DNA of 64,000 bases from the NCBI GenBank assembly GCA_016291435.1, contig JAEEXH010000001.1, positions 59,661 through 123,660 of the forward strand. Reading direction: 5' to 3'. The translations under genes were made by a program, and so were the position numbers. The notes under the pieces are model-generated. The model searched no databases. It was not told where the DNA came from and saw only the letters and a program-made list of their open reading frames with translations. Of the stretch, positions 4,611 through 20,048 are shown piece after piece. The first letter of the stretch is position 1, and the number at the start of each line of letters is the position of its first letter. This DNA is from Oscillospiraceae bacterium (GTDB taxonomy: Bacteria > Bacillota > Clostridia > Oscillospirales > Ruminococcaceae).

Positions 4611-5900
4611 TTATTTGTATACCGGGAGCCATTCCGCTTTGCCTGCAAGCAGATCGGATACGCTGCATTTCAGGCCGTCACGGAGCGGGTCGATGCCCTC
4701 CATGGGGTCTGCCGTGCGCTCCAGGAGGATGACCGTGAGCGTTTCGTCGTCAGAGAACATGTGCAAGAGCTGCATGTCCTCCGGGATTGCGATGCTGCCG
4801 CAGATCTGCATATCGGTACTGAGCAGCAGCACGCTGTTTTCTGCGCTTTCTGTGTAGAGGTAGGTACCGTCAAAGAGCATATGCTCCCAGCTGACATCGC
4901 CCGCCGCCTGCATATCAAGCGCTGTGTCGGTATCGGTGCCGGGGTCGCGCAGAAGCATCCGGGGATTCCCTGCCGAGGCATCTATCCGGATGAAGCGCTC
5001 CGCAGAGGGTGCGATCGCGGGGATATTCCCGCCAAGATAGGTCTCTGCTTCGCCGGTCAGCAGGCTGACACGGTGAATGCCGTCGCCGCTGCGGGGCTGC
5101 TTTGGCTGCCAGAAGTAAAGATCATCGCCGCTGCCCCAGAGGGTAGTCGGTTCGGTGAGTTTGCCAGGTCTGCCGGCGGGCGGCATTTCCTCGCAAACGA
5201 CAAACTGCCGCTTTTCTCTCGGGTCATAGCCGATGACCGCATAGCCCCTGCGCGAACAGTCTGCCTGTGAACCGACGATTGTGTTGTCCTGAAAATCGGG
5301 ATCATCGAGGATGCTGATGAGTGCATACAGGCAGCCGCGGTGTACGCAGAAGTCGGTCACATCCGCGGCGGTATAGGGCATTTCCCAGTATGCCAGCTCC
5401 TCGATGCCGGTGCCGTCCGGCGCATAAGAAAGGAGTACGGGAAAAGAAAAGTCAAAGTTTCCGTTTTTCTTATCCGCAAAGGAATAGAGCGTGCCGTCCG
5501 CAGAGAGGAGCCATGTCCGGCGGTATGTGTCCGCTGAGGCTTCGCAGAATGCGCTGCCGTCGTGCAGACAGTTTGCACGGGCGCAGAGCGGAACCGCCGT
5601 GCCGCTTCTGTCGCAGAACTGATAAAGCGTCTGTCCGCTGCCGTCATATTCGTCGGTGCGGTAGTAAATGCCGTCTGCCGTCTCCGCGATGAGCGGCATC
5701 GGTTCATAGATGCTCCTGACGCGCGCAGAGGGATTATCCTTCTGCGCGGTCAGGGTCGGAGCGGCATAGCCTTCATCGGTGATGTGCTTTTCCGGCAAAG
5801 CGGCGCTGCTTTCTTTCAAGGGCTGCCCGTCCGAAGCCTCTGCGCAGGCAGTGAGCGTGCAGCAGAGCAGGAGGAGAGAAACACACACAGAGCGTTTCAT
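4611..5900 (-). CDS. lipoprotein paralog (P1) of the C-x4-C-x-H-x5-C ectodomain family; lacks the anti-sigma-like N-terminus
   Basis: 429 aa. The signal peptide has a lipobox (MKRSVCVSLLLLCCTLTAC). It contains PLCARANCLHDGSAFCEAS, LLSYAPDGTGIEELA, HRGCLY and a C-terminal SDLLAGKAEW, as in the other paralogs. RBS GAGGAGGG; only 12 nt separate it from the P2 stop. Confidence 0.85.
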   Translation of the reverse strand: MKRSVCVSLLLLCCTLTACAEASDGQPLKESSAALPEKHITDEGYAAPTLTAQKDNPSARVRSIYEPMPLIAETADGIYYRTDEYDGSGQTLYQFCDRSGTAVPLCARANCLHDGSAFCEASADTYRRTWLLSADGTLYSFADKKNGNFDFSFPVLLSYAPDGTGIEELAYWEMPYTAADVTDFCVHRGCLYALISILDDPDFQDNTIVGSQADCSRRGYAVIGYDPREKRQFVVCEEMPPAGRPGKLTEPTTLWGSGDDLYFWQPKQPRSGDGIHRVSLLTGEAETYLGGNIPAIAPSAERFIRIDASAGNPRMLLRDPGTDTDTALDMQAAGDVSWEHMLFDGTYLYTESAENSVLLLSTDMQICGSIAIPEDMQLLHMFSDDETLTVILLERTADPMEGIDPLRDGLKCSVSDLLAGKAEWLPVYK

Positions 5901-5912: not shown

Positions 5913-7553
5913 TCAGTGATAAATGATCTGCATATTATCGTCAATATGTGCTGCCTTGAGCGTAATATCGGAGACCTGAAGGAATTTCTCCCAGTCCTCC
6001 GAAGCGCTGCCCTTTCCGGCGAGCAGATCGCTGACACGGATGCGGTAAAGATAATCGTTCGGGTCCATCGTTTCGATGTCGCTTCTCCACTGCGCTTCAT
6101 ATTCTCCGTTTTCCAGCTGCGTGTGCGTCACCAGATGTTCGGAATTGCGCTGCATCACATACAGATAATCCCCGCGCAGAAAGCTGTCTGTCTGAGATTC
6201 CATGAAATCCGGCGCCGCGACCGTCTGCACAACACGGCAGTCATAATCACAGAGATACAGCACAAAGTTCGGATCTTCCCCCTCTGCCGGGGTCGAGACA
6301 AACAGCAGATAATCGTCATTCACCGAATAGTCATCCCAGTTCGGGTGTCCCTTGATCCCGGTTCTGTCCAGACGGGTCTCCTCGCCCGTGAACAGGTCAA
6401 GGCGCGTGAGCTTTGTGCCGTTTATGTCGCTGTCAAGCACGAAGCAGGCGTCCTTGCCGAACTGGATATTTGCGTCCATCGCCTGTTTGAGCGTCTTTAT
6501 CTCGAAGCTGTGCAGATCGAGCTGCTTGATGCTGCCGAGGATCAGGCTGTCGCCGTATCCCGCGATCATCCCGTAGGTGCCGCAGTCCCTCGATTCATCC
6601 GGCTCCGGCATGTTTATCGCAAGAATGCCGCCCTTGCCGGTCGCGAGCTCATAGCAGACGATCGCCGAGCCGCGGCAGCACGGCGAGCCTGCAACATCAC
6701 GGTTGGTCGCGTCCAGACCGACAGAGGCAAAGAGACAGCCGCGGTAAAGGATCACATCCACCACAGATGCGGCATATGTTTCATACGGGAATGAGAACCG
6801 CATGAGCTCCTCAATGCGGGTGCCGTCATTTGCATAGCGCAGAACCAGCGGCCCCCCGCCCCAGGAGCCGTCCTCATTGAGCGGCTGGGTGATCATATAG
6901 AGCTGATCGTCATAGCTGATGAAACGCCCCGGTGCATAGGCTTTCGTCGATGCCACGCAGTAGGGATTGCCGTCGTGCAGGCAGTTTGCCCGGGCGCAGA
7001 GCGGCACGCATTCGCCGGTCTCCTTGTCCTGATAATAATAGCAGCTGTGCTCGTTCTGCGCGCGCTGCGGAAAGCTCTCGGTGTTGTCCGGGTCATAGTT
7101 CAGCTCATACGTATCCTGCATGTAGTAAAGGCCGTCCGAGGTCTCTGCAAACCATGCCATCTCGTCATAGCGATAGCGCTGTCCGCCGAGATGATACGGC
7201 GCTGCCGTGCGCGTGTCATCCGTGAGACGGAGCGCCTCCGGCTGCTCCTGCACGCTGACAACTGCCGGTTCATTGCTGCTGCCGCGGTCAAAGATATTGC
7301 CGCCCTGCGAGCCGCGCATTGCGACGGCTGCCGCGATGCCGCCCGCGCCGAGCACTGCCGCCGTGATCGCGGCACCGATCGCGATTTTTCCGATTTTCCG
7401 TTTGTTTTCCCGCTTTTCCATTGTGCGTTTCCCTTTCCGGGATGCTGCTTCGGCACGCTGCTCCCGCACATAGTCCGCGATCATGTCATAATACCTGCGG
7501 TCTGCGTTCTTCACAGCGCGGCGGATCCGTTCCTCCGTGAGCTTCACAGCCAT
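5913..7553 (-). CDS. single-pass membrane sensor paralog P2 (putative anti-sigma of module 1)
   Basis: 546 aa. N-terminal ADRRYYDM motif, TM AAVLGAGGIAAAVAMRG and ectodomain PLCARANCLHDGNPYCVAS. The ATG at 7553 overlaps the sigma stop by 10 nt. Confidence 0.85.
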   Translation of the reverse strand: MAVKLTEERIRRAVKNADRRYYDMIADYVREQRAEAASRKGKRTMEKRENKRKIGKIAIGAAITAAVLGAGGIAAAVAMRGSQGGNIFDRGSSNEPAVVSVQEQPEALRLTDDTRTAAPYHLGGQRYRYDEMAWFAETSDGLYYMQDTYELNYDPDNTESFPQRAQNEHSCYYYQDKETGECVPLCARANCLHDGNPYCVASTKAYAPGRFISYDDQLYMITQPLNEDGSWGGGPLVLRYANDGTRIEELMRFSFPYETYAASVVDVILYRGCLFASVGLDATNRDVAGSPCCRGSAIVCYELATGKGGILAINMPEPDESRDCGTYGMIAGYGDSLILGSIKQLDLHSFEIKTLKQAMDANIQFGKDACFVLDSDINGTKLTRLDLFTGEETRLDRTGIKGHPNWDDYSVNDDYLLFVSTPAEGEDPNFVLYLCDYDCRVVQTVAAPDFMESQTDSFLRGDYLYVMQRNSEHLVTHTQLENGEYEAQWRSDIETMDPNDYLYRIRVSDLLAGKGSASEDWEKFLQVSDITLKAAHIDDNMQIIYH

Positions 7554-8104
7554 CCCTCCTCACTCAAGAATTTCCGCAGCTTTTTGCGGGTGCGCATCAG
7601 CGTGACGGTCACCCGGCTCTGCGAGATGCCGAAGGCTTCGGCGATCTCCCGCGTGCTGCGGTCGTTTCCGTAGTAATGCACAAAGATCATGACAGTCATC
7701 TTCGGGAGCGTCTTCAGAAACCGCCCGACTGCTTCATCCAGAAGCCGCTCCTCCATGAGCTGCTCGATGGAATCGCCTGCCGGCTCCCTGCCGCGGCTAA
7801 GATCGTGGAGCGGGATCTCCGCCTGTCCGCCGCCGCGCTTCTTTGCCTGCTTCTGCTCCGCACGGTTGAGCGAAAGCCGCTTCACCGTCGTGTGCAGATA
7901 GGCGCCGAAGCTCTTCGGGGCTGCGGGCGGGACTGCGCTCCAGACTTGCAGCAGCGCGTCGTTCCAGACCTCCTCTGCGTCCTGCTCGCTGTGCAGAATG
8001 CGCATCGCGAGCTTTTTGCAGGCGCCGCCGTACTGCGCCGTCAGCGCCCTGAGCGCCGATTCATCGCGCTTTTGCAGCAGCGTTAAGATCTGCCTGTCCG
8101 TCAT
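7544..8104 (-). CDS. ECF-type sigma-70 family factor (module 1)
   Basis: 186 aa. Region 2-like DAEEVWNDALLQVWSAVPP...YLHTTVKRLSLNR and a region 4 HTH REIAEAFGISQSRVTVTLMRTRKKLRKFL. Confidence 0.88.
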   Translation of the reverse strand: MTDRQILTLLQKRDESALRALTAQYGGACKKLAMRILHSEQDAEEVWNDALLQVWSAVPPAAPKSFGAYLHTTVKRLSLNRAEQKQAKKRGGGQAEIPLHDLSRGREPAGDSIEQLMEERLLDEAVGRFLKTLPKMTVMIFVHYYGNDRSTREIAEAFGISQSRVTVTLMRTRKKLRKFLSEEGWL

Positions 8105-8260: not shown

Positions 8261-9949
8261 TTATTCGAGCGGCCCGTATTCATGATCCCAGCCGTTCTCA
8301 TAGAATGTGCCGTCATCGGGATTGTAACAGTAGTTGTGGATCAGCGTACACTGCGGCTCCCATTCCGGGCTGCCGCTCAGCAGTGAATCAATGCTGCACC
8401 GGCAGAGCACGCCGGGCGTCTCGCCGTCGCCGACATAGAGCACGCCTTCCGCATTCTTCTCGATCGCGTTGTAATCCAGCGCATAGAGGAAGCCGTCGCG
8501 CACCGACAGCTTGCGCAGCGCATGCCGGAAGCGATAGCTGACCGTTTGCAGAAGCTCACGGCTCGCAAGGTCGTAGACGCTGATGCGGTATTCCGCCTTC
8601 TGTACGCCGTCCTCCTTCATCACAACACGGCTCAGGCCGTAGAATCTGCTGCCGTCTGTCGTATAATCCTCAAATGCCGCATCCAAGAGCTTTTCGGATT
8701 CGCCGGTGTCAAGATTCATTTTCATGGTGTAGGATACATTCGGCGTGCGCACCTGATAAATCAAAGTGCTGCCGCACATCGTAAAGCCCGTCATGCCGTT
8801 ATTGGCACCCGAGACAACCTGCCTGTGCGCGCCTGTTTTCAGATCTATCGCAAAAATGCCGTTGCTGTTTTTCGCCTGCCAGTCGCCGCCGCCGATCTGA
8901 TAGCAGAGCCAGTCGCCGCCCGCACAGAGCATGACAGGCGTCGGATATATGATGTTCGACTCCGCATCCGGCATCGAGCGGTAAAGCTCCAGCGTCTTGC
9001 CGGTCGCGATCTCATAGCCGAAGATGGCGTAGCCTGTGTTGGATGTGTTCTCATCGCTCGGATTCTCGGGGTTGAAATCCGCCAGACGGTGATGCAGCTC
9101 TGCCATCCACCAGACATAGCCGCGGTGAATGACAGGCGTGCCGATGGGCATGGAGCATTCCGCCTTGATGCGGGCAAGCTCCGTGATGCCGGTGCCGTCG
9201 GGCGCATAGGAGAGCAGATAGGTGTATTCGCTGTTATACTGATCACGGTCTCCGGCTGCGGCATAGAGCACGCCGTCATAGGCAACAAGCCCGTGCTGCA
9301 CATATTTTTCCACAGACGCTTCGCAGAAATCATCGCCGTAATGCAGACAGTTCGGTCTTGCACAGAGCGGCACCTCCCCGCCGGATTCCGCATCGCTGTA
9401 TCCGATTATGCTTATGCCGCTTCGGTGGTCGGCATAAAACTTCGTGATCAGCTCATCCTGTTCGGTTTCGTCAAGCTGCGCGAGCGTATCATATGCGAAT
9501 GTGTTGACGATCGAGTGATACCAGCCGGTATCGGAGGCGGTGTACCAGAAACTGTAATTCTCAAGCGGACTGTGGAACCGCTGTGCCGAGTTGTCCCACT
9601 GCTGATCGGTGAGATGCAGCCCGAGTGTGTTCTGCTCTGTCTGCCCCGAAAGCTCCGCGGCACGGCTGCTGCCGTCAGACTGATTGTTTCCGCCGTTTGT
9701 GCCGCGCATTGCAACGATTGCCGCCATGCCGCCGCCGCCCAGCACTGCCGCCGCGAGCACCCCCGCGAACACATATTTCCCGATCCTCCGCCGCTTTTCT
9801 CTGCGCTGTTCTTTTTCCATATCAAATGCCTTTCCCTTCTGCCTCTGCGCGAACTCCGAAGGAGAGCAAAGTCTTGCGGAAAGCTCCGCAAAATACCGCT
9901 GATCGGCACGCGGCAAAGCATGCAGAAAGGCGCGTTCCTTTTTGTTCAC
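8261..9949 (-). CDS. single-pass membrane sensor paralog P3 (putative anti-sigma of module 2)
   Basis: 562 aa. The GTG start at 9949 overlaps the sigma stop (GTGA). TM AAAVLGGGGMAAIVAMRG and ectodomain PLCARPNCLHYGDDFCEAS. Confidence 0.85.
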   Translation of the reverse strand: MNKKERAFLHALPRADQRYFAELSARLCSPSEFAQRQKGKAFDMEKEQRREKRRRIGKYVFAGVLAAAVLGGGGMAAIVAMRGTNGGNNQSDGSSRAAELSGQTEQNTLGLHLTDQQWDNSAQRFHSPLENYSFWYTASDTGWYHSIVNTFAYDTLAQLDETEQDELITKFYADHRSGISIIGYSDAESGGEVPLCARPNCLHYGDDFCEASVEKYVQHGLVAYDGVLYAAAGDRDQYNSEYTYLLSYAPDGTGITELARIKAECSMPIGTPVIHRGYVWWMAELHHRLADFNPENPSDENTSNTGYAIFGYEIATGKTLELYRSMPDAESNIIYPTPVMLCAGGDWLCYQIGGGDWQAKNSNGIFAIDLKTGAHRQVVSGANNGMTGFTMCGSTLIYQVRTPNVSYTMKMNLDTGESEKLLDAAFEDYTTDGSRFYGLSRVVMKEDGVQKAEYRISVYDLASRELLQTVSYRFRHALRKLSVRDGFLYALDYNAIEKNAEGVLYVGDGETPGVLCRCSIDSLLSGSPEWEPQCTLIHNYCYNPDDGTFYENGWDHEYGPLE

Positions 9950-10515
9950 AATAAGCCCTCCCCGTTCAGAAATTTTCGCAGCTTAAGGCGTGTGCGCATC
10001 AGCGTGACAGCCGCCTTGCTGTAAGTGATCGCAAAGGCATCCGCGATCTCCCCGACCGACTTCCCGTTCACATAGCGGTGCAGGAAGATGGTGCGGGCTT
10101 CGGGTGTGAGCGTTGACAGAAAGCGGTTGACCGCCTCTGTCATCAGTGCTTCATCCATGATCTGCTCAACGGAGACCTTTGCGGGCTGCTGCCGCGCCGC
10201 TGCATCGTCGAGTGAAAGCTCCGGCAGACCGCCGCCGCGCTTTTTCGCGCGCTGTTTCTCGCGTTTCTGATATGCGTGCCGCCTGAGAACGGTGCAGAGA
10301 TAGGCAAAAAGATCCTCCGGCTCAGCGGGCGGAATCGCATTCCAGAGGCTCAGGAGCGTATCGTTCCAGACCTCTTTCGCGTCCTCCTCGGAGTGCAGGA
10401 TATTTGCCGCAATGTTTCTGCCGGCGCCGCCGTATTTTTTCGATACGGCTCGGAGCGCTTTTTCGTCCCGCGCTGCAAACAGAGCGAGAATCTGCTTGTC
10501 TTCCGTTGCAATCAC
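9946..10515 (-). CDS. ECF-type sigma-70 family factor (module 2)
   Basis: 189 aa paralog of 7544-8104 (EEDAKEVWNDTLLSLWNAIPP...; HTH GEIADAFAITYSKAAVTLMRTRLKLRKFL). The start is GTG at 10515 or the adjacent ATT; see findings. Confidence 0.85.
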   Translation of the reverse strand: MIATEDKQILALFAARDEKALRAVSKKYGGAGRNIAANILHSEEDAKEVWNDTLLSLWNAIPPAEPEDLFAYLCTVLRRHAYQKREKQRAKKRGGGLPELSLDDAAARQQPAKVSVEQIMDEALMTEAVNRFLSTLTPEARTIFLHRYVNGKSVGEIADAFAITYSKAAVTLMRTRLKLRKFLNGEGLL

Positions 10516-10626: not shown

Positions 10627-12261
10627 TTATTTGAGCGACACCTCCGAGAGCGTCAGCACGGTCTCGCAGTCTGAAGCATCCGTATCTCCGCGCAGCACAT
10701 CCGCCGTCGGGATGCGGCAGAGACAGGCGTTTGCGTCCGCGTCCGGATTGAAGTCGCCTTCCCTGATCAGACCGTCCTCATAGATAGTGTCGTAGCGAAG
10801 ATCGAAGCCGTCCGTCACAAACCAGAGATACCCGTCACGGACAAAATACCGCAGGATTTTGCCGCGCGATGTAAGGTCGATGCGTGCAAGCGTTCTGCCC
10901 GCCGCATCCCCGACCGCGATCCCGTGCGCATGCGTATCTTCCCCGTAATCTGACCACTGCCAGAAGGTATACTCCCCCTGCTTCAGCACAAACGGGAACG
11001 CCTCGCCCGCATCGCCGAGCTTCTGCCGCATCCCCTTCGTGATCTCGCCGGTTTCGTAATCGCAGAACTTATACGCCGGTTCAATGCCTGCGTCATCCCT
11101 GTAATAAATGCCGTCTGTACCCGCAAAGAAGTCCCCCGCGTACAGACGCACATTTTCCTCGAGCCGTTCGCAGGCAAATGTGCCGAGATCCATGCGGTAA
11201 ATACCGCTGTGTGTGCCTGTTTCGAGCGCATAGAGCGCACTGCCTTTGCACCAGATCTGCTCCGGGCTGCCGTATACCGTATGCTCGCCTTCCGGCGGGA
11301 GATTCAGATACAGCGTATACGCCTGCTTTTCCGCAAAGTCATAGCAGACAACTGCCCAGCCGCCGCGCACGGCTTTGGTGACGGTGCCGACATCCGGCTG
11401 CTCCGTGACCGCCTGCTCTGCAACAGAGAGCGCCGCAAAGAGATACCCTTTGTGGATGCAGAAATCCTGCACCGCGATCTGTGCATTCGGCAGGTCGCTT
11501 GTGAACTGCACAAGCTCCTCGATTCCGGTACCGTCAGGCGCATAGGAGAGCAGGAAGCAGCCCTTGCTGTCTGCGCCTCTGCCCTTTTCCGCAACGGTAT
11601 AAAGCCCGCCGTCCCAGCTCAGCAGATGATGTGTCTCATAGGCTTTTGTCGATGCCTCGCAGTATTCATTGCCGTCGTGCAGACAGTTTGCCCTTGCACA
11701 GAGCGGCACGGTCTCGCCGGTCGCCTTGTCCTTGTAGCAGAAATAATCTGCCGTGATCTCCGTCTGTTCTTCCGGCGGGGCATATTTGTCCCTCCTGCGG
11801 AAGAACCAGCCGTTCTCTGTTTCCGTGACATACGGATTCACGCTGATGCCGCGCAGACTGTCTGCAATGTAATAATCCTGCTCCGGCATGAGCCGCGCGG
11901 TGAAATCGTCATCGCCGCCCTCCGTGAGACGGAGCGCCGGGGTATCGACCCCTTCCGTGATATTTTTCAGTTTGACACCGACGGTGTTCCGCTGAAAGAT
12001 GCTGCCGCCCTGCGTGCCGCGCATTGCAACGATTGCCGCCATGCCGCCCGCGCCGAGCACTGCCGCCGCGATCAAACCCGCGGCCGCGATTTTTCCGATT
12101 CTGCCGATTTTCCCTCTGGTTTCCCGCTGCTTCATAAGACGCTGTCCTTTCCGGGCAGCCGTTTCACTGCGGTGCCGTTCGATGCGGCGCGTCACCATAT
12201 CAAAATAGCGGCGGTCTGCACGCTCGACAGCTTGCAGAAAATCCTTTTCCGTGATCTTCAC
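10627..12261 (-). CDS. single-pass membrane sensor paralog P4 (putative anti-sigma of module 3)
   Basis: 544 aa. ADRRYFDM, TM AAAVLGAGGMAAIVAMRG and PLCARANCLHDGNEYCEAS (codons 11659-11700). 4-nt overlap with the sigma stop. Confidence 0.85.
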   Translation of the reverse strand: MKITEKDFLQAVERADRRYFDMVTRRIERHRSETAARKGQRLMKQRETRGKIGRIGKIAAAGLIAAAVLGAGGMAAIVAMRGTQGGSIFQRNTVGVKLKNITEGVDTPALRLTEGGDDDFTARLMPEQDYYIADSLRGISVNPYVTETENGWFFRRRDKYAPPEEQTEITADYFCYKDKATGETVPLCARANCLHDGNEYCEASTKAYETHHLLSWDGGLYTVAEKGRGADSKGCFLLSYAPDGTGIEELVQFTSDLPNAQIAVQDFCIHKGYLFAALSVAEQAVTEQPDVGTVTKAVRGGWAVVCYDFAEKQAYTLYLNLPPEGEHTVYGSPEQIWCKGSALYALETGTHSGIYRMDLGTFACERLEENVRLYAGDFFAGTDGIYYRDDAGIEPAYKFCDYETGEITKGMRQKLGDAGEAFPFVLKQGEYTFWQWSDYGEDTHAHGIAVGDAAGRTLARIDLTSRGKILRYFVRDGYLWFVTDGFDLRYDTIYEDGLIREGDFNPDADANACLCRIPTADVLRGDTDASDCETVLTLSEVSLK

Positions 12262-12824
12262 AGCCAGCCCTCCTCATTCAGATATTGCCGCAGTTTTTTT
12301 CGGACGCGCATGAGCGTCACGGCGACCTTGCTGCGCGAGATGCCGAACGCCTTTGCGATTTCCGTAAAGCTGCGGTGGTTTCCGTAATGATGCACAAAGA
12401 TCGTCAGGGTCTCCTCAGGGAGCGTTGAGAGAAAGCGGTTGACCGCCTCCTCCAGCATCCGCGCCTCCATCAGCTCCTCGACCGTTTTGCCGCCCGATGC
12501 GGGATGACGGTGTTCGGGGAGTGCGTCAAGCGAGGTCTCCGCTCTGCCGCCGCCGCGCTTTATCGCCTGCCGCTTTTCGAGACGCTTCAGCGCAAGATGC
12601 CGGACGGCCGTGTGCAGATAGGCGCCGAGATCATCGGGCTCTGCGGGCGGGACAGCGTTCCAGAGATTCAGCAGGGCGTCGTTCCAGACCTCCTCTGCAT
12701 CCTCATCCGATTGCAGGATATTCCGTGCAATGCGCAGCCCCATCGGGCGATATGCCGCGGTGAGTGCCGCGAGCGCTGATTCATCGCGCCTTTGCAGCAG
12801 GGCGAGGATCTGCCTGTCGTTCAT
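12258..12824 (-). CDS. ECF-type sigma-70 family factor (module 3)
   Basis: I chose the ATG at 12824 (MNDRQILALLQ) because it has GGAAG 8 nt upstream. The track ORF extension to 12962 runs through the promoter motif and is rejected. Confidence 0.85.
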   Translation of the reverse strand: MNDRQILALLQRRDESALAALTAAYRPMGLRIARNILQSDEDAEEVWNDALLNLWNAVPPAEPDDLGAYLHTAVRHLALKRLEKRQAIKRGGGRAETSLDALPEHRHPASGGKTVEELMEARMLEEAVNRFLSTLPEETLTIFVHHYGNHRSFTEIAKAFGISRSKVAVTLMRVRKKLRQYLNEEGWL

Positions 12825-12899
12825 TGTGATCACTTCCATTCCGTTTGTGTGCGCGGTTCCGGAGCCGCAGCACTGTGCAGAGAATTCTCTGTACTGGTA

Positions 12900-12984: not shown

Positions 12985-14613
12985 TCAGTTCAGCAGTGCG
13001 CTGAGCCGCTGAATCTTCTCGATCGTGCAGACCGTTTCCCAGTCGGCGCTGCCCGCTTTGAGATCAGCCGTTTTGCAGCGAACAAGACAGGTGTCCGGGT
13101 CGTCCGCCGAGATCATGCCGCCGCTGCGGTAAGAAGGTCCCATCAGCGCACAGATGTCGCCGCCGATGAGCCGCAGCGTGAGGAAATCGCGGTCTGCGGG
13201 GCCTTCCAGCGTCCCCTGAAGCTGCATATCCATGTCGTAGAGATAAACCGTGCAGTGATCGTCAGCGGTGCCTGCCTGCTTGCAGATCGCGACATGCTTT
13301 CCGTCCGAAACCGTGATGCCGCTCGGGATATCGCTGTATATTTTGCTTTCGCCGGTCTCGGTGTCCAGAATGCAGAACTGATACTGATTCACCTTGACCT
13401 GCTTGCGGCAGAGGATATATTTGCCTGCCGTACCCTCACGGGCATAGCTTGCTGTGCCGCTCAGCAGCGTCTTCACCTCGCCGCTGCGCAGATCGAGCCC
13501 GTAGAGACCGACGGTGTAGGTCGCAGGCCAGCCGGATTCGCTTGAGAAATAGAGCATATCGCCGCCTGCCGAAAGAAACCGCGGCGGCTCCTCATAGCCC
13601 TTGGAGTTGTTCTCCTTCGGCATGACACTGAGCACCTCTGTCGTTTTGCCAGTCGCGATCTCGTAGGCATAGACCGCATAGCCTGTGCCCTTATGGGGAT
13701 TGTTGAAATCAAATTCGCTCTCGCTTGGCGAGGCGCCGTTCCGCACACGGTACAGGCAAAACACATAGCCGCGGTGGATGATCATATCCAGCGGGTCTGC
13801 CTCGCCCTTGCTGAACACCGCAAGCTCCGTGATGCCCGTGCCGTCAAGCGCATAGGAGAGCAGGCAGCGGCGGTAATTCTCGGGGTCGTCCTCATCGGTC
13901 GAGCGCGCCGCACAATAGAGCACGCCGTCATAATAAAGCGGTTTCCCGCGGTAATACTTTGCTGTTGTCGCCTCGCAGTATTCATTGCCGTCATGCAGGC
14001 AGTTCGGGTGCGCACAGAGCGGCACATCCTCGCCGGTCTCGCTGTCATAATACCAGATGATGTCATTGCGCGGCTTGGAAGTGTTATATGCGCTTTCCGC
14101 CGCATCCATCCTTTCATTCTCCGCGTCGGTATAGGAATTCTCCCCGCCTCCGCGCAGATCGTCGATCAGTTCAAAATTGATCTCATGATACCAGCCTGTA
14201 TCCGATGCCGTGAACCACATCTGGTCTGCGATATAGGAGTCGCCGGTATTGATCTCGCACCACTCCCCGCCGTCGGTGAGATTGAGATGCAGCGCTGCGG
14301 TGCCGTCTGTCTGCGAGGATGTGACCTCTGCGGCACGGCTGCTGCCGTCAGACTGATTGTTTCCGCCCTGCGTGCCGCGCATTGCGACGATTGCCGCCAT
14401 GCCGCCCGCGCCGAGCACTGCCGCCGCGATCACACCCGCGGCCGCGATTTTTCCGATTTTTCCAAGATGCTTTCCCACTTTGGATGCCTTCCCTTTCCGG
14501 GATGCCGCAAACGCATCCGGGTCGGCGCGGCGCCTTGCGATCTCCGCATAGAAGCGCCGGTCTGCATCCTTCATGAGCCGCAGAAATTCCTGCTCCCTGT
14601 GTTTCACAGCCAT
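12985..14613 (-). CDS. single-pass membrane sensor paralog P5 (putative anti-sigma of module 4)
   Basis: 542 aa. ADRRFYAE, TM AAAVLGAGGMAAIVAMRG and PLCAHPNCLHDGNEYCEAT. 10-nt overlap with the sigma stop. Confidence 0.85.
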   Translation of the reverse strand: MAVKHREQEFLRLMKDADRRFYAEIARRRADPDAFAASRKGKASKVGKHLGKIGKIAAAGVIAAAVLGAGGMAAIVAMRGTQGGNNQSDGSSRAAEVTSSQTDGTAALHLNLTDGGEWCEINTGDSYIADQMWFTASDTGWYHEINFELIDDLRGGGENSYTDAENERMDAAESAYNTSKPRNDIIWYYDSETGEDVPLCAHPNCLHDGNEYCEATTAKYYRGKPLYYDGVLYCAARSTDEDDPENYRRCLLSYALDGTGITELAVFSKGEADPLDMIIHRGYVFCLYRVRNGASPSESEFDFNNPHKGTGYAVYAYEIATGKTTEVLSVMPKENNSKGYEEPPRFLSAGGDMLYFSSESGWPATYTVGLYGLDLRSGEVKTLLSGTASYAREGTAGKYILCRKQVKVNQYQFCILDTETGESKIYSDIPSGITVSDGKHVAICKQAGTADDHCTVYLYDMDMQLQGTLEGPADRDFLTLRLIGGDICALMGPSYRSGGMISADDPDTCLVRCKTADLKAGSADWETVCTIEKIQRLSALLN

Positions 14614-15173
14614 CCCTCCTCGTGCATTGCCTTCCGAAGCCTGATGCGCGTCCGCATCAGGGTGACAGCAACCTTGCTCCGCGAAATGTGAAATTCCGCC
14701 GCGATCTCTGAGACGGTCTTTCCCGTGCCGTAATGCTCCAGAAAAATCGTTCTGGCATCGGGTGAGAGCGCCGTGAGAAAGCGGTTGACGGAATCGAGCA
14801 TCATGGCGCGCTCCATGAGCTCCTCCACATCATTGCTCTGCGGGTGGTGCTTTTCGGAGATTGCTTCCAGTGAGAGCTCCGGCTGACCGCCGCCGCGCTT
14901 CTGCGTGTTTTTCTTCTCGAGCCTTTGCAGCGAGAGCCGCCGCACGGCGGTGCAGAGATAGGCAAAGAGATCGTCGGGCTTTGCGGGCGGGATCGCATTC
15001 CAGAGATGCAGCAGGGCATCGTTCCAGATTTCCTCTGCGTCCGCCTCTGAGTGCAGTATATCCCTTGCGATTTTGCGCCCGGCTCTGCCGTACTGCTTTG
15101 TCAGCAGATGCAGCACCTGTTCGTCGCGCTGCTCGAGCATTCTGATCAAGCGGCTGTCTTCCGTTGTCATCAC
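14604..15173 (-). CDS. ECF-type sigma-70 family factor (module 4)
   Basis: 189 aa paralog. GTG at 15173 is followed directly by ATG at 15170; the ATG is the more likely start given GAAAGG 5 nt upstream. Confidence 0.85.
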   Translation of the reverse strand: MMTTEDSRLIRMLEQRDEQVLHLLTKQYGRAGRKIARDILHSEADAEEIWNDALLHLWNAIPPAKPDDLFAYLCTAVRRLSLQRLEKKNTQKRGGGQPELSLEAISEKHHPQSNDVEELMERAMMLDSVNRFLTALSPDARTIFLEHYGTGKTVSEIAAEFHISRSKVAVTLMRTRIRLRKAMHEEGWL

Positions 15174-15200
15174 TTCCTTTCGAGGTCCCTCTGTTTACTG

Positions 15201-15459: not shown

Positions 15460-17097
15460 TCAGTTTTCGGGTTCAGGGTGCTCCGCACGCCATGCCTCCA
15501 TGTCGATCTCGTGCATCTTCACCAGCGTACACGCCTGCTTCCATTCCGCATTGCCCGCAAGCAGCGCCTCCCGGCTGCATGACAGCACGGCGGCATCCTT
15601 TGCGATGATGCCGGATGTCTCCTGGATTTGCCCCTGATACTCCGTAATGACGCCGTCCGTGATGACTGTGACCGTGTCGCCGAACACCATGATTCTCCGC
15701 ACGCACTGATGATCGGGCACGCGCAGGGAGGCGACCTCCTTGCCCGTCATATCCAGCACGCGCACAGCATAGCTCATAACCTCCCTGCTTTTATCCGCCT
15801 CAGCCGAGTAGATATAGCTTCCGTCCGTCACAGAGTACGAGAGCGAGCCGTTATACAGCGTTTCCGTTTCGCCGGTCGCCGCATCGGTTGATTTTACCTT
15901 GTCCGGCGTGGCATCAAAATCCGTGTAATAGACTTTGCTGCCGGATACGGCAAAAACAGCCTCCTTATCCACGAGCTGTTTATGGCTGCCGTCTGTGAGA
16001 TTCAGCGCATAGATGCCTTGTTTGTTGGTATTCTGCCATGTGCCGTTTCCTATGGAATAGAACAGATAATCGCCGCCTGCCGAAAAAGTCCACGGTGCAT
16101 CTTGCCTGATACCGGAGCCTGCCTTCGGCATACAGCTATAGATCTCCGTCGCCTTGCCCGTGGCAATCTCATAGCCGAGAATCGCATAGCCGCTGTCGCT
16201 TTTTGTCACAAAGCCCGCCGCATCATATTCCAGCGGATTGATTTTCATGAAAATGCAGAACACATAGCCGCGGTGAACAACCGGTGTGCAGATCACATCG
16301 GTATACTGCTCGCCGAATGTGCAGAGCTCGGTGATGCCCGTGCCGTCCGGCGCATAGGAAAGCAGCACGGCGGTTGTCTTTTTCGGTACTGTTCCATCCG
16401 ATTTCAGTTCATCGAAATTCAGCGTTTTCAGCGCGGAAGCGTAGATCACGCCGTCCACACAGACCGGATCCGAGCGGCGGTAGGTATTCGAGGTCGCTTC
16501 GCAGTATATGCTGCCGTCATGCAGGCAGTTCGGTCTTGCGCAGAGCGGCACATCCTCGCCGGTTTCGCCGTCGCAGAACATGAGCGGCAGGTTTTCCAGA
16601 TAAAGCTTCGTCGGATACAACTCCTGCTGTGCTTCAAAGAACTCCTCGCCGAGCTCGCCGTCTGAGGGCGCTGCCGTCTCATCATAGCTGTGATACCAGC
16701 CGTTTTCGGTCGGGAACGCACAGCCGTAACCCGTGCTGCCATAGGAATCCGACTGCATGGCATTCCACTGCTGATCGGTGAGATTGAGACTGAGCGCTTC
16801 CGCGTGCTGCTCCTCGACCATACTGCGCATGTCGCGGGATTCCTCGCTGACGATGCCGAAGCCGCCGCGCATCGCGACCGCTGCCGCAATGCCGCCTCCG
16901 CCGACGAGTGCCGCTGCGAGCACCACGCCCCACGCAAGCTTCTTGTGATGTTTTTTCTCCGCAGATTTCATTTTGCGTGTTCCTCCTGCTCCGTATTTCG
17001 CTGCGAAAGCCTGAGGATCCGCTGCCCGGTCTGCGGCCATTTTGAAGAAACGGCGGTCTGCGCCTTTGACCGCACGCAAAAATTCCTTTTCCGTCAT
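15460..17097 (-). CDS. single-pass membrane sensor paralog P6 (putative anti-sigma of module 5)
   Basis: 545 aa. ADRRFFKM, TM LAAALVGGGGIAAAVAMRG and PLCARPNCLHDGSIYCEAT. ATGA overlap with the sigma stop. Confidence 0.85.
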   Translation of the reverse strand: MTEKEFLRAVKGADRRFFKMAADRAADPQAFAAKYGAGGTRKMKSAEKKHHKKLAWGVVLAAALVGGGGIAAAVAMRGGFGIVSEESRDMRSMVEEQHAEALSLNLTDQQWNAMQSDSYGSTGYGCAFPTENGWYHSYDETAAPSDGELGEEFFEAQQELYPTKLYLENLPLMFCDGETGEDVPLCARPNCLHDGSIYCEATSNTYRRSDPVCVDGVIYASALKTLNFDELKSDGTVPKKTTAVLLSYAPDGTGITELCTFGEQYTDVICTPVVHRGYVFCIFMKINPLEYDAAGFVTKSDSGYAILGYEIATGKATEIYSCMPKAGSGIRQDAPWTFSAGGDYLFYSIGNGTWQNTNKQGIYALNLTDGSHKQLVDKEAVFAVSGSKVYYTDFDATPDKVKSTDAATGETETLYNGSLSYSVTDGSYIYSAEADKSREVMSYAVRVLDMTGKEVASLRVPDHQCVRRIMVFGDTVTVITDGVITEYQGQIQETSGIIAKDAAVLSCSREALLAGNAEWKQACTLVKMHEIDMEAWRAEHPEPEN

Positions 17098-17663
17098 AGC
17101 CAGCCCTCCTCATTCAGATACTTTTTCAGCTTGATGCGGGTGCGCATCAGACTGAGCGCAGCCTTGTTCCGTGAAATTTGGTACATGTCTGCGATCTCCG
17201 CGATGCTTTTGCCGTTGCCGTAGCGCTGCACAAAGATCGTGCAGGCATCGGGCGAAAGCGACTGCAAAAAGCGGTTGACCGCATCGTTCAGGAAAATCGC
17301 GCCGACCGTTTCCTCGACCGCATTGCGTGCGGGCTGGGCGTGCTCGGGGAGATTTTCGAGCGACAGTGCCGCCTGTCCGCCGCCGCGCTTCTGCGCGTTC
17401 CTCTGATCGAGCCGTTTATAGCAAAGATTGCGCACAACGGTCGTGAGATAGGCGTAGAAATTATCGGGGCGTGCGGGCGGGATTGCATTCCAGACCTGCA
17501 TCAGTGCATCGTTTAAGACCTCCTCCGCGTCCTGCTCGGAATGGAGCAGATGCGCGGCGAGATTTCTGCATGCCCTGCCGTATTGCTTCGAGACCGCAGC
17601 GAGGGCAGCTTCATCGCGTGCAAAGAACAGATCGAGGATCTGCCTGTCGTTCAATGTGATCAC
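17094..17663 (-). CDS. ECF-type sigma-70 family factor (module 5)
   Basis: 189 aa paralog. The track start is GTG at 17663. By alignment with module 3 (ATG AAC GAC AGG CAG), the TTG at 17654 (TTG AAC GAC AGG CAG) is an alternative start. Confidence 0.82.
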   Translation of the reverse strand: MITLNDRQILDLFFARDEAALAAVSKQYGRACRNLAAHLLHSEQDAEEVLNDALMQVWNAIPPARPDNFYAYLTTVVRNLCYKRLDQRNAQKRGGGQAALSLENLPEHAQPARNAVEETVGAIFLNDAVNRFLQSLSPDACTIFVQRYGNGKSIAEIADMYQISRNKAALSLMRTRIKLKKYLNEEGWL

Positions 17664-17862: not shown

Positions 17863-19485
17863 TCAGCCGTAGGCCGCTTCAGCAGTGACAAATTCAAACA
17901 CCGTCTCCCAGTGCGGATCATCTGCGATCAGATCAGATAGATCACAGCAGAGGAGCTTCGCCGATTCGCTCTTCTGCCGCTTCTGCACCGAAATCTCCGG
18001 GTCCTGCGTGTAATAATACAGCTGATACAGCTTTCCGTCATGCACCTTCATGTTGCCGAAGACCGCATTCTCAGGGCGCTGCACGCTTGCGATCTGATTC
18101 CATTCGCTGTCAAAAATCACGGTCACATCACGCGAGCTGCCCGATGTGTTTTCGTAATCGGTGCGCTCGGCAATCACATAATCGCCTGCCTGCACAAGCC
18201 GATGGTAATTGTCCCTCATATCGAACGGGAGCTCCGTATTCTCGCCGGTTTCAAGGTCATAGCTGTAATTCAGATAGATCGGTGTGCCACTGCCGTGTTC
18301 CTTTGCGGCATCCGTCTTATAATAGATTTTCTGCTTTGCCGCAAACAGAAGATTCTGCGATATTTCATAGCCCGCAAGCGGGAGCTTTTCGCAGGCGCCG
18401 GTCACAAGATTGATCGCATAGATTCCCTTCGGCTCGGGCGACGGCCATTTCGCAAACTGATAGCTGAAATAGATTCTGTCGCCTGCCGCCAAAAGAGATC
18501 CGTTCGGCACATCGTATTCCTTGCCCTCGTCCGCGCCCGGCATCGAGCGGAAGATCTCCGCTGTTTTGCCGCTTGCCAGCTCATAGCCCCGGATAACAAA
18601 GCCGCTCGAAACCTGCCGCTTTGTTTCGCCTGTGAATTCATCCCCGGTTTCCTCGCCGTAATAGCTGTAATCTTTGTAGACCGCAAAGATGCAGCCGCGA
18701 TGCAGGATCGGGTCGCCGATCAGCTCCGCCTTCGGGTGCACATCAAAGTGTGCAAGCTCCGTGATGCCGCTGCCGTCCGGCGCATAGGCGAGCACATAGC
18801 CCGCGTCATATCCGCCCTTGTCGTTTCGCTTCGAGGCAAGCGCATAGAGCGCATCGCCGTAAGGGATCAGCGCCGAGCGGTCGGCATAGCCCTTTGTGGA
18901 GGCTTCGCAGAAATCGCTGCCGTCGTGGAGACAGTTTGCGCGCGCGCAGAGCGGCAGCGTTTCGCCGGTCTCGCTGTCTGTGAAGACAACGCCGTGATTC
19001 ATCGGCAGATTTTCATACCAGTCAAGATAGCCGAGACCGTCATAATTGCCGTCTGCATCCGTTTTGATCTCGGTGCGATAGATCTGCTCGTGATAAAAGC
19101 CCTTGTCTGTCGCAGCAAACCAGAGATGCTCCTGCGGGGATACAGACTGCCCGTAGCTTTTGCAGAAGAGATCGTTCCATTCCTGATTTGTGAGCGTCAG
19201 CCCGCTTTGCGCGGTGACAGTCTGCTCCGTGTGATTGTTTCCGCCGTGTGCACCGCGCAGCGCGACCGTTGCCGCTATGCCGCCCGCACCGAGCACTGCC
19301 GCGGCGATCACCGCAGTGAGCGCATATTTTGTGATGCGCCGGATCTTTTGCTTTTGCATGAGATGCCTTCCCTTCCGGGCGGCTGCCCCAGCTTTTGTCT
19401 CCGCAATGCGGCGCTTCACCATGTCATAATATCTGCTGTCCGCCTCCCGCACGGCGGCGCGCAGTATCTGATCATCCAGCTTCAC
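17863..19485 (-). CDS. single-pass membrane sensor paralog P7 (putative anti-sigma of module 6)
   Basis: 540 aa. ADSRYYDM, TM AAAVLGAGGIAATVALRG and PLCARANCLHDGSDFCEAS. 4-nt overlap with the sigma stop. Confidence 0.85.
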   Translation of the reverse strand: MKLDDQILRAAVREADSRYYDMVKRRIAETKAGAAARKGRHLMQKQKIRRITKYALTAVIAAAVLGAGGIAATVALRGAHGGNNHTEQTVTAQSGLTLTNQEWNDLFCKSYGQSVSPQEHLWFAATDKGFYHEQIYRTEIKTDADGNYDGLGYLDWYENLPMNHGVVFTDSETGETLPLCARANCLHDGSDFCEASTKGYADRSALIPYGDALYALASKRNDKGGYDAGYVLAYAPDGSGITELAHFDVHPKAELIGDPILHRGCIFAVYKDYSYYGEETGDEFTGETKRQVSSGFVIRGYELASGKTAEIFRSMPGADEGKEYDVPNGSLLAAGDRIYFSYQFAKWPSPEPKGIYAINLVTGACEKLPLAGYEISQNLLFAAKQKIYYKTDAAKEHGSGTPIYLNYSYDLETGENTELPFDMRDNYHRLVQAGDYVIAERTDYENTSGSSRDVTVIFDSEWNQIASVQRPENAVFGNMKVHDGKLYQLYYYTQDPEISVQKRQKSESAKLLCCDLSDLIADDPHWETVFEFVTAEAAYG

Positions 19486-20048
19486 AGCCTGCCCTCCTTA
19501 TCGAGCCATTTCCACAGCTTCCTGCGGGTGCGCATCAGCGTCACGGCAACCTTGCTCTGCGTGATGCCGAACGCCTCAGCGATCTCGCGGATGCTGCGGC
19601 CGTTTCCGTAGTAATGCACAAAGATCGTGACAGTCTCCTCCGGCTGCGTGCCGAGAAAGCGGTTCACAGACGCATAGAGCGCACGGGCATCCATAAGCTC
19701 CTCCACGCTTTTCCCGGCGGGGTGCAGGCTTTCCGGCAGCGCATCGAGCGAAACCGGGCTTCTGCCGCCGCCGCGCTTCTGCGCGTTTCTCTGCTCCAGA
19801 CGGTTGAGCGAAAGCCGCTTCACCACCGTATGCAGATAGGCGCCGAGACTGCGCGGCTGCTCCGGCGGAATGCTGCTCCAGATTTGCAGCAGCGCATCGT
19901 TCCAGACCTCTGCCGCGTCCTCCTCGCTTCCGAGCAGGCGGCAGGCGAGCTTTCTGCACTGTGTCCCGTACTGCGCCGTCAGCTCCCGCAGTGCCGTTTC
20001 ATCGCGGCTTTGCAGGAGACGGAGAATCTGTCTGTCGGTCAATGTCAT
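19482..20048 (-). CDS. ECF-type sigma-70 family factor (module 6)
   Basis: ATG at 20048 (MTLTDRQILRLLQ) follows GAAAGGAAG. The track extension to 20261 runs through the promoter motif and a repeat element and is rejected. Confidence 0.85.
   Translation of the reverse strand: MTLTDRQILRLLQSRDETALRELTAQYGTQCRKLACRLLGSEEDAAEVWNDALLQIWSSIPPEQPRSLGAYLHTVVKRLSLNRLEQRNAQKRGGGRSPVSLDALPESLHPAGKSVEELMDARALYASVNRFLGTQPEETVTIFVHYYGNGRSIREIAEAFGITQSKVAVTLMRTRRKLWKWLDKEGRL

Follow-up and report, generated by a model that had tools for sequence, protein, structure and literature searches.

A Cys3His motif as the probable signature of a large family of exported beta-propellers in anaerobic Clostridia

Eight paralogous proteins encoded in a 64,000-nucleotide stretch of Oscillospiraceae DNA (the window, by which we mean the whole of the analysed stretch) share the arrangement C-x4-C-x-H-x5-C in their ectodomains. 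The question raised by this locus is what these three cysteines and one histidine do: whether they receive the signal in a set of putative ECF anti-sigma factors, as the initial annotation considered likely beside a structural-core role, or whether they have a role that is common to a wider group of proteins.

The motif and its gene cluster

When the open reading frames of the window are translated, the exact pattern is found in 8/8 minus-strand paralogs. The main site is CARANCLHDGNEYC, residues 188-201 of paralog A3 (11659..11700); the other copies, likewise read on the minus strand from ORF translations, are CARANCLHDGSAFC in the lipoprotein paralog (5544..5585), CARANCLHDGNPYC (6957..6998), CARPNCLHYGDDFC (9323..9364), CAHPNCLHDGNEYC (13975..14016), CARPNCLHDGSIYC (16501..16542), CARANCLHDGSDFC (18907..18948) and CNRPNCLHDGSEFC in the type-B paralog (21871..21912). 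These are the same eight peptides that had been reported before; seven of the approximate ranges originally given do contain the motif, but the first begins 1 nt late. A six-frame scan of the whole window returned the eight paralog matches and a single unrelated match on the plus strand (35620-35661), as against a mean of 0.08 chance matches in 50 shuffles of the window.

The underlying DNA had also been described as similar, and over the 60 nt around the motif the paralogs do average 77% identity. The Cys and His codons vary synonymously between paralogs (TGC/TGT, CAC/CAT), which rules out recent gene conversion as the source of this similarity and points to selection on the protein as the reason for the motif's conservation. 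Identity between paralogs is 72% in the motif block (residues 184-205) versus 28% over the whole ectodomain, with ectodomains 23-35% identical outside the identical motif, and the two most conserved ectodomain blocks are the motif loop and LLSYAPDGTGIEEL (residues 237-251).

All eight genes belong to one 21-kb cluster, read here entirely on the minus strand, which also holds genes for seven ECF sigma factors, an ABC ATPase and a putative permease; of the eight paralogs, seven are membrane-anchored and one is a lipoprotein. Six type-A sigma genes are co-oriented with an anti-sigma-type propeller paralog and overlap its start by 4 or 10 nt: A1 (sigma 7544..8104, paralog 5913..7553), A2 (9946..10515, 8261..9949), A3 (12258..12839 in an ORF reaching to 12962, 10627..12261), A4 (14604..15173, 12985..14613), A5 (17094..17663, 15460..17097) and A6 (19482..20048 with the likely start MTLTDRQIL in an ORF reaching to 20261, and 17863..19485, the overlap being 4 nt). 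An element of the form GTGTAA-N16-CGGTC is conserved upstream of the type-A sigma/anti-sigma pair. The sigma genes were assigned by TIGR02937, Sigma70_r2, Sigma70_r4_2 and Sigma70_ECF; A3 matches TIGR02937 with 81 bits, A2 has a Pfam/NCBIfam family match, A5 and A6 are placed through the paralogous sigma genes 12258-12962 and 9946-10515, and A1 and A4 are read from their ORF translations. The seventh sigma gene, of ECF type B (20275..20748; Sigma70_r2 and Sigma70_r4_2; its counterpart in L005 matches at E 6.5e-71), lies 9 nt downstream of the type-B paralog (20758..22512) and not upstream of it, as had been thought. That paralog, a membrane-anchored propeller protein and putative anti-sigma of sigB, differs from the others in its N-terminal domain (YRxAVxxVRW...) by translation and alignment.

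The remaining paralog (4611..5900), identified by translation and alignment as a lipoprotein with an LTAC lipobox signal peptide, has neither an anti-sigma part nor a sigma gene of its own. Beside it are encoded the ATPase of an ABC-2-type (DrrA/GldA-like) ABC transporter (3617..4501; PF00005, with TIGR03522 and TIGR01188 below their cut-offs and the lantibiotic-protection model TIGR03740 likewise under its cut-off at E 5e-37) and a 694-aa polytopic membrane protein (1540..3624), by position its putative permease partner, which matches no Pfam or NCBIfam family and has a full-length homolog (E 1e-36) at the same position in L026. The ATPase is 60% identical to that of L026, which there follows seven lipoprotein paralogs. 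In Oscillospiraceae as in Lachnospiraceae, genes of the family go together with one conserved ABC-2 exporter, and this applies to its lipoprotein and anti-sigma kinds alike.

The membrane-anchored paralogs are predicted to have a single TM helix with the N-terminus inside. Their TM segment is a conserved hydrophobic block (AAVLGAGGxAAxVAM) after a K/R-rich segment, and the AlphaFold2 model of A3 opens with a long helix (residues 17-67) followed by a second one (74-82). The extracytoplasmic location claimed for the motif agrees with its position after this positive-inside helix, or after the lipobox in lipoprotein members. That it follows a TM helix in every paralog is correct for the membrane-anchored ones, where it lies about 100-120 residues after the helix, but not for the lipoprotein 4611-5900, which has no TM helix and in which the motif stands 87 residues after the lipobox Cys. 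The cytoplasmic N-terminus of A3 (residues 1-57) contains no Cys, the first in the protein being C175. The putative anti-sigma domain (residues 1-80) has no Pfam match, and with the anti-sigma model NF052375 of NCBIfam it reaches only 13.9 bits where the cut-off is 100; in the A3 model its helices continue into the TM helix.

Likened by layout alone, the type-A pairs resemble Tt-RpoE1/Tt-TolB (TTE0323/TTE0322) of Thermoanaerobacter tengcongensis, also in Clostridia, an ECF sigma factor and a single-pass anti-sigma factor with a TolB-like extracytoplasmic domain, whose genes are 2 bp apart where those of the window overlap by 4 or 10 nt, and whose anti-sigma binds sigma through cytoplasmic residues 1-39 and has one TM helix (PMC3397946). 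It is a single pair, however, and no paralog array, Cys motif or ABC exporter link is reported for it (PMC3397946). Reports on Clostridium thermocellum SigI/RsgI describe nine single-pass RsgI proteins with carbohydrate-binding modules outside the cell, and signalling by proteolysis (PMC12203970, PMC10328401, PMC6056542); the likeness lies in many sigma/anti-sigma pairs in one Clostridia genome and in an ectodomain kind that the cell uses elsewhere. In contrast, the sigma factors of the window are canonical ECF proteins (region 2 and region 4_2) and not SigI, the predicted ectodomain is a beta-propeller and not a CBM, the pairs stand in tandem in one cluster which an ABC-2 exporter adjoins, and no RsgI-type autoproteolysis domain was found in the window paralogs. 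In lantibiotic self-protection by LanI and LanFEG, finally, an extracytoplasmic lipoprotein is also encoded beside an ABC-2-class exporter. LanI has no sequence or fold relation to the window lipoprotein, but the analogy suggests that a binding or immunity role may be involved.

Breadth of the family and conservation of the four residues

A profile search with the ectodomain recovered at least 2,772 cluster representatives (clusters at 50% identity). C188, C193, H195 and C201 are invariant in an alignment of 30 close homologs, and in the best 135 of the 2,772 representatives all four residues are present in 132-133 of 133-134 informative rows, which are otherwise only ~20% identical to the query. 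The family consensus reads L-C-x-[KR]-P-[NE]-C-x-H-D-G-x-x-[FY]-C-x-A-[TS]. Among 131 matched representatives the last spacer is x5 in 119, x4 in 11 and x6 in one, and P0144 keeps C-C-H-C with this spacer lengthened to x8. The only motif-less member with full coverage among the best rows, P0108, has all four residues replaced (R, G, E, W), and its full-length relative P0289 has also lost the same four together; because both have replaced them jointly, the four residues appear to act as one unit.

No other universally conserved Cys or His was found in the ectodomain alignments (30 close homologs; best 135 of 2,772). A semi-conserved C-terminal Cys was considered as an obligatory fourth partner and rejected, since it is absent from paralog 5913-7553 and from many homologs; within the Lachnospiraceae lipoprotein subfamily, 32 of 35 members do carry a fourth Cys close to the C-terminus. 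H270 and D243/G244 were likewise rejected as additional ligands, given that H270 varies (Tyr or Phe in ~9% of members) and that in the inferred topology these residues belong to A-B and C-D turns, on the opposite face from the motif loop. Ectodomains contain between 4 and 20 Cys, and even and odd counts stand at 68:64; as there is no even-number bias, we see no sign of disulfide-based folding. Of 20 anaerobic Firmicutes in a published proteome analysis, only 2 showed an even-Cys bias among exported proteins, the mark of disulfide formation (PMC2823432).

Every named member is a "hypothetical protein" from an Oscillospiraceae or Lachnospiraceae MAG. The family takes the form of lipoproteins and of fusions to anti-sigma N-termini, and the idea that the motif marks anti-sigma factors only was rejected since the majority of the distant members are lipoproteins. 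Lipoprotein members without a signalling part (92 sequences examined) keep the motif just as invariantly. A Tat consensus was found in 0/92 lipoprotein-type members, from which it would follow that members cross the membrane unfolded; for a protein exported in that state, a simple ion is a likelier partner than a cofactor assembled beforehand.

When the eight paralogs and ten distant members were scanned with Pfam and NCBIfam, nothing matched over the motif region, and PDB sequence searches, whether started from one sequence, from two family profiles or from a motif-only profile of 30 columns, gave no significant match over the motif. Our literature search found no relevant DUF5050 paper and none on Oscillospiraceae anti-sigma factors, and the paper that reclassified the ECF sigma factors is silent on anti-sigma domains of propeller, TolB, WD40 or DUF5050 type. 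The concern that the motif might simply be common in an already described family is therefore half justified: common it is, in a family of the breadth given above, but that family is undescribed in Pfam, NCBIfam and the PDB. On sequence grounds, the motif appears to identify a large and as yet undescribed family of Sec-exported, TolB/DUF5050-like beta-propellers in strictly anaerobic Clostridia.

Fold of the ectodomain and position of the motif loop

AlphaFold2 was run twice on paralog A3 (10627-12261), with alignments of 30 and of 135 sequences. In the 135-sequence model (pLDDT 80.9, pTM 0.77) the ectodomain is all-beta, and residues 181-210 have pLDDT values of 97/93/93, versus 47 with 30 sequences. 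Residues 187-207 are modelled without helix or strand, as a loop of about 20 residues that joins strand 184-186 (blade 1, outer) to strand 208-210 (blade 2, inner); the high pLDDT indicates a defined loop and says nothing of metal.

Foldseek searches of the PDB with both models returned generic propellers only, namely 3s25, BtuG, TolB and peptidase propellers (E about 6e-8 to 1e-6, TM up to 0.59), with 3s25 at E 6e-8 and a TM of 0.56 normalised to target. Profile matches to the PDB fall over later blades (tricorn 6e-13, TolB 1e-5, 3s25 weakly), with the motif outside all of them, and between the Cys3His loop and any PDB or profile match downstream of it there are more than 100 residues. At the DUF5050 (PF16472) gathering threshold of 27 bits, one of the eight paralogs passes (A5, 31.6 bits, residues 330-445), while another reaches 17.3 bits and six have no match; 0/10 distant family members match this model. 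As modelled, the domain is a TolB/DUF5050-like beta-propeller. Its likeness to DUF5050/EUBREC_1955 (3s25), TolB and BtuG is one of fold class, to which BtuG, a B12-binding surface lipoprotein, adds that many family members are surface lipoproteins too. It differs from DUF5050 and TolB in its Cys3His loop, which no solved structure or profile covers. As a point against a structural need for the loop, the rare motif-less clade shows that such a propeller can also occur where the motif is missing.

Candidate roles for the Cys3His loop

On balance, we favour reading the motif as a structural Cys3His zinc knuckle common to the whole family and not as a ligand-specific sensing site. The three thiolates and the imidazole would bind one structural metal ion, by default Zn(II) acquired outside the cell, and so staple the loop. 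Within the window, this putative knuckle would serve the seven membrane-anchored paralogs paired with the seven ECF sigma factors, and also the lipoprotein paralog beside the ABC-2-type exporter. Each paralog's ligand specificity would come from its variable propeller faces and not from the knuckle, and ligand binding would lead to the usual proteolytic release of the sigma factor.

A metal site or structural core was among the options offered by the initial annotation, and it is the reading best matched by the joint loss of the four residues, the lack of a conserved fourth Cys, the absence of an even-Cys bias and the confidently modelled irregular loop. Its further proposal, that this is the most likely signal-receiving element, fares worse: the propellers of the eight paralogs are otherwise only 23-35% identical and yet have the same motif, which is as invariant in lipoproteins that have no signalling part. 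Since one would expect variation in a ligand-specific sensing site, a signal-receiving role is disfavoured, and identity across divergent paralogs and non-signalling lipoproteins argues for a common structural role and not for specificity.

We know of no standard zinc-finger spacing that the motif fits. The family spacing of x4, x1 and x5 departs from the classical CCHC knuckle, C-x2-C-x4-H-x4-C. With the motif-only profile, the PDB yielded a non-significant match (E 0.76) to FCARQNCSHD of the RIG-I C-terminal domain, where F-C-A-R-Q-N-C-S-H-D nearly matches the family's L-C-A-R-x-N-C-L-H-D. The zinc ligands of RIG-I are C810, C813, C864 and C869, and C864/C869 form the C-x4-C pair. RIG-I, however, is a cytosolic protein with an unrelated fold, a CxxC pair far from this one supplies its other two ligands, and the four ligands listed do not include the His; the match is only a local precedent, not homology. 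The ZAS anti-sigma factors (RsrA, RslA, ChrR; H-x3-C-x2-C) also combine an anti-sigma function with a Cys/His zinc site, redox-sensitive in some of them, but theirs has another spacing and lies in the cytoplasmic sigma-binding domain, whereas the family site belongs to the extracellular sensor domain and is found in other proteins besides anti-sigma factors.

In propellers, the loop from strand D of one blade to strand A of the next is usually on the ligand-binding "top" face, and the motif loop, linking the blade 1 strand 184-186 to the blade 2 strand 208-210, would be such a loop. As a counterpoint to the structural reading, a direct functional role can thus be conceived: a functional metal centre, or a ligand or cofactor site shared by the family, on the top face and acting in every member, for example by binding a moiety common to the ligands, by sensing metal or by catalysis, and so doing more than stabilise the fold. 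The loop's place, with LLSYAPDGTGIEEL, among the two most conserved ectodomain blocks is in keeping with this, and one conserved ABC-2 exporter in both bacterial families could mean that members share a ligand class. We nevertheless judge it unlikely, as tetrahedral Cys3His sites have no open coordination position and are typical of structural, not catalytic, sites, the 7-8 diverged paralogs per locus suggest that specificity is carried elsewhere in the domain, and neither PDB profile nor Foldseek searches found any similarity to an enzyme active site.

The loop might alternatively be a switch sensitive to redox state or oxygen, its thiols reduced or metal-bound in the anoxic gut until oxidants form a disulfide or eject the metal, upon which the loop would unfold, expose a cleavage site and release sigma. 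Zinc-thiolate redox switches are well established in the cytoplasmic ZAS anti-sigma factors, RsrA among them, which provide a precedent, and exposed thiol-rich ectodomains in strict anaerobes would suit such a role. We find this very doubtful, however: the motif is just as invariant in the 92 lipoprotein members without a signalling part, eight parallel sensors of one oxidant in one operon would be redundant, and the neighbouring gene product is an ABC-2 exporter and not an oxidative-stress protein.

A purely structural disulfide, with two Cys bonded and the third Cys and the His kept for packing, seems more improbable again. C188 and C201 do flank a 12-residue loop that a disulfide could close, and the C-terminal Cys of 32/35 Lachnospiraceae lipoproteins would also suit it. 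Yet the exported-disulfide signature occurs in few anaerobic Firmicutes (PMC2823432), and family Cys counts lack an even bias (68:64). The number of invariant Cys is odd, so that all three cannot sit in intramolecular disulfides, the fourth Cys is missing from many members including paralog 5913-7553, and the co-invariant His is left unexplained. We give almost no credence to an iron-sulfur cluster or heme-type cofactor, for although three Cys and one His ligate [2Fe-2S] in mitoNEET-type CDGSH proteins and the string H-D-G-S loosely recalls C-D-G-S-H, ligand order and spacing differ from the CDGSH pattern (C-x-C-x2-[ST]-x3-P-x-C-D-G-[SAT]-H), CxxCH is lacking (in C-x4-C-x-H one residue stands between the second Cys and the His, which bears out the initial view that this is not a heme-c motif), the lack of a Tat signal (0/92 lipoprotein-type members) makes folded, cofactor-loaded export impossible, and no Pfam or NCBIfam family covers the motif region.

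Were the structural zinc knuckle that we prefer instead an exposed functional metal or thiol centre, strict anaerobes would have in this family a new class of propellers whose binding or sensing outside the cell depends on metal, a prospect we regard as rather improbable. The anti-sigma paralogs could then read redox, oxygen or metal status at the cell surface; a thiol-reactive or metal-chelating antimicrobial would be a possible signal, with the ABC-2 exporter switched on in response, and the lipoprotein paralogs would be possible decoys or immunity proteins.

With at least 2,772 clusters at 50% identity, this is a large family of exported beta-propellers of gut and rumen Clostridia, which the motif allows one to recognise by a single line of sequence and in which Pfam, NCBIfam and the PDB leave the motif uncovered. 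A locus can hold an array of as many as seven or eight members, and they occur both as ECF anti-sigma sensor domains and as exporter-adjacent lipoproteins. Exported proteins of aerobic Firmicutes are mostly kept free of cysteine, so that an invariant extracellular Cys3His site in Firmicutes is unusual, and it would offer an easily testable case of extracytoplasmic thiolate-metal chemistry. To our knowledge, ECF regulation in uncultured Oscillospiraceae and Lachnospiraceae is almost unstudied, and multi-paralog surface sensing comparable to that of SigI/RsgI, acting in all likelihood on a conserved exporter, would give a concrete entry point.

The Cys3His motif in the window and in its family

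Between 4611 and 22512 the window carries eight paralogous minus-strand ORFs, and every translation matches C-x4-C-x-H-x5-C (5544-5585, 6957-6998, 9323-9364, 11659-11700, 13975-14016, 16501-16542, 18907-18948 and 21871-21912); translating these ORFs reproduced exactly the eight peptides listed in the initial annotation. A six-frame scan of the window (58.8% G+C) returned the eight copies and one further match, at 35620-35661 on the plus strand, against a mean of 0.08 in 50 shuffles of the window. The plus-strand match shows no sequence relation to the family motif and probably arose by chance. Paralog copies are 77% identical over the 60 nt around the motif, and their Cys and His codons differ synonymously (TGC/TGT, CAC/CAT); motif conservation therefore reflects selection on the protein. 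Recent gene conversion as its source is ruled out by the same codon differences. The motif block (residues 184-205 in the product of 10627-12261) is 72% identical between paralogs, as against 28% over the whole ectodomain. Among ectodomain blocks, it and LLSYAPDGTGIEEL (residues 237-251) are the most conserved. This second block (about 11509-11553, minus strand) would form the C-D hairpin of blade 2, and its conservation equals that of the motif. The TM helix that had been assigned to every paralog is absent from the product of 4611-5900, which is a lipoprotein, and the N-terminal domain of the 20758-22512 product (YRxAVxxVRWxxxxRxxIE), the type-B paralog, also has to be distinguished from those of the other paralogs.

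A word-index search recovered only 23 relatives, all unnamed and all with the motif. An ectodomain profile, run exhaustively in HMMER, retrieved 2,772 cluster representatives with E-values up to 1e-3 (531 with E-values up to 1e-10). Taking a census over 135 of the best matches among these 2,772, we found C-x4-C-x-H-x(3-6)-C in 131 (x5 in 119, x4 in 11, x6 in one). The four exceptions are two fragments beginning past the site, the protein P0144 with an x8 spacer, and P0108, the sole true motif-less member of the 135, in which all four residues are replaced (C188R, C193G, H195E, C201W). P0289, a full-length relative 87% identical to P0108, is without the same four residues. These two proteins, from Oscillospiraceae MAGs, represent a small type-B clade that has lost the motif and kept the full-length propeller, a natural motif-less control. 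No further Cys or His is universally conserved in the 135-member set; H270, in an HRG turn, is 91% conserved across the family.

Named members are all annotated "hypothetical protein" and come from Oscillospiraceae or Lachnospiraceae MAGs, and 25 loci in species-representative genomes all belong to uncultured gut or rumen Oscillospiraceae, "Ruminococcus sp." or other Clostridia, one of them (L001) being 97% identical to the window. Scans of ten distant members against Pfam and NCBIfam gave no family match. Lipoproteins of 400-460 aa make up most of the distant members, and the propeller domain is therefore not specific to anti-sigma factors.

Predicted fold around the motif

AlphaFold2 models of the 10627-12261 product had a pLDDT of 74.9 overall and 47 over residues 191-200 with a 30-sequence alignment, and of 80.9 (pTM 0.77) with 135 diverse family members, residues 181-210 then scoring 97/93/93. 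In the deep-alignment model, helices at the N-terminus and the TM helix are followed by a linker, disordered as far as about residue 140, and by an ectodomain built wholly of beta structure (145-543). The motif falls within 20 residues (187-207) that form neither helix nor strand in this model, flanked by strands 184-186 (VPL) and 208-210, and by strand order this loop would lead from blade 1 (outer strand) into blade 2 (inner strand). Foldseek matches are beta-propellers only (3s25, the DUF5050 structure EUBREC_1955; BtuG lipoproteins; TolB; peptidase and tricorn propellers), with E-values near 1e-7 and TM scores no higher than 0.59. Sequence-profile matches to tricorn (6e-13), 3s25 (2e-6) and TolB (1e-5) are all confined to later blades, and Pfam gave the eight paralogs a single marginal DUF5050 match, over residues 330-445 of one. 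Profile, sequence and Foldseek searches found no Pfam, NCBIfam or PDB entry covering the motif.

Role of the Cys3His site

On balance, we infer that the motif probably binds a structural metal through tetrahedral Cys3His coordination; the metal, by default taken to be zinc, would be acquired outside the cell. The evidence points to the four residues acting as one cooperative unit, as opposed to a group of disulfides or a specificity determinant: three Cys and one His are invariant without a conserved fourth Cys, the four go missing jointly or never, and the loop is modelled confidently despite its absent regular secondary structure. The predicted export route, Sec (the Tat consensus occurs in 0/92 lipoprotein-type members), also favours such a unit. 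The motif is identical in paralogs otherwise 23-35% identical and in non-signalling lipoproteins, which argues against a specificity determinant and leaves the proposal of a signal-receiving element as the part of the initial annotation that fares worst. The sole PDB sequence resembling the motif profile, FCARQNCSHD of the RIG-I C-terminal domain (E 0.76, not significant), has both Cys as zinc ligands and is a local precedent only.

A functional site on the propeller's top face, for a metal or for a shared ligand, is conceivable, if unlikely; the D-to-A position of the loop and an exporter common to the family would suit it. A redox switch is decidedly unlikely given that lipoprotein members carry the motif too and given the eight-fold redundancy. 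That the Cys form disulfides only is very improbable: ectodomains are rich in Cys (4-20) and show no even-number bias (even:odd 68:64), and such a bias, the mark of exported disulfide formation, appeared in only 2/20 anaerobic Firmicutes in a proteome analysis (PMC2823432). Residue spacing and export via Sec make an Fe-S cluster or heme hardly credible.

Gene cluster, conserved exporter and proposed signalling

Every gene from 22512 down to 1540 lies on the minus strand. The membrane-anchored type-B paralog (20758-22512) comes first, and 9 nt downstream lies sigB (20275-20748; Sigma70_r2 and r4_2), a seventh ECF sigma gene differing in type from the other six (MLSKENIALYAF... in homologs); this order recurs in family loci L005, L008-L010, L013 and L015. 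Six pairs of an ECF sigma gene and an anti-sigma-type (type-A) paralog, with coding regions overlapping by 4 or 10 nt, separate sigB from the lipoprotein paralog (4611-5900), which begins 12 nt past the last anti-sigma-type gene. An ABC-2-class, DrrA/GldA-like ATPase (3617-4501) and a 694-aa polytopic membrane protein without family match (1540-3624) follow. The flanking plus-strand ORFs 22919-24754 and 24789-26564 we take, by eye, to resemble 2-isopropylmalate synthase and the acetolactate synthase large subunit.

A promoter-like element is conserved on the minus strand upstream of all type-A sigma genes, with a weaker version upstream of the type-B paralog (8105-8225, 10516-10600, 12840-12960, 15174-15290, 17664-17780, 20052-20160 and 22513-22640). 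The approximate consensus reads AAAAATTTTT..GTGTAA-N16-(C)CGGTC-N8-ACAGAG-GACCTC (A/T tract first, CGATC as a variant of (C)CGGTC, spacers of about 16 and 8 nt), and the element could be an ECF promoter under autoregulation, with a conserved leader.

Family genes usually stand in tandem arrays. In L026, from a Lachnospiraceae MAG, seven consecutive lipoprotein paralogs, each with CNKPEC[KR]H...C, precede an ABC ATPase 60% identical to that of the window and a 661-aa full-length homolog of the 694-aa membrane protein (E 1e-36); in the Oscillospiraceae loci L013 and L015 (L011 is similar), a type-B paralog is followed by a type-B sigma gene and the same ATPase and permease. Because these loci keep the same ATPase and permease, the ABC-2-type exporter is a conserved partner of the propeller family and likely the output of the system. 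The module common to Oscillospiraceae and Lachnospiraceae (window 1540-5900, minus strand; L026 1635-14109; L013 2437-7208; L015 1843-6101) consists of at least one Cys3His propeller gene, of lipoprotein or anti-sigma type, the DrrA/GldA-like ATPase and a 660-690-aa polytopic protein that matched no Pfam or NCBIfam family. The window looks like this core, as in L013 and L015, plus six inserted pairs of sigma and anti-sigma-type genes and a lipoprotein. In L026 a HATPase_c_5 kinase lies upstream of the array, and 15902-20814, downstream of array and transporter, encodes a 314-aa protein rich in Cys (MENSYCGKDCDDCLDREAVGCPGCKSGPG...), a PALP enzyme, a protein with a weak Condensation-domain match and a methyltransferase, and may be a small natural-product cluster.

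By analogy with Tt-TolB/Tt-RpoE1 and RsgI/SigI, a ligand would bind a variable propeller face and set off anti-sigma proteolysis, and the freed sigma factor would induce its own operon and the exporter. Pairs of ECF sigma and single-pass anti-sigma factors are well known. One such pair from Clostridia, Tt-TolB/Tt-RpoE1, in which the anti-sigma factor bears a TolB-like ectodomain, has been characterised (PMC3397946), and C. thermocellum has in SigI/RsgI a multi-paralog system of sigma/anti-sigma sensing (PMC12203970, PMC10328401 and PMC6056542). What is new is the Cys3His signature itself, which fits none of the standard zinc-finger, ZAS, CDGSH or heme patterns; the large family that it defines outside Pfam, NCBIfam and PDB coverage; and the dual use of that family, as lipoprotein and as putative anti-sigma sensor, beside a conserved ABC-2 exporter.
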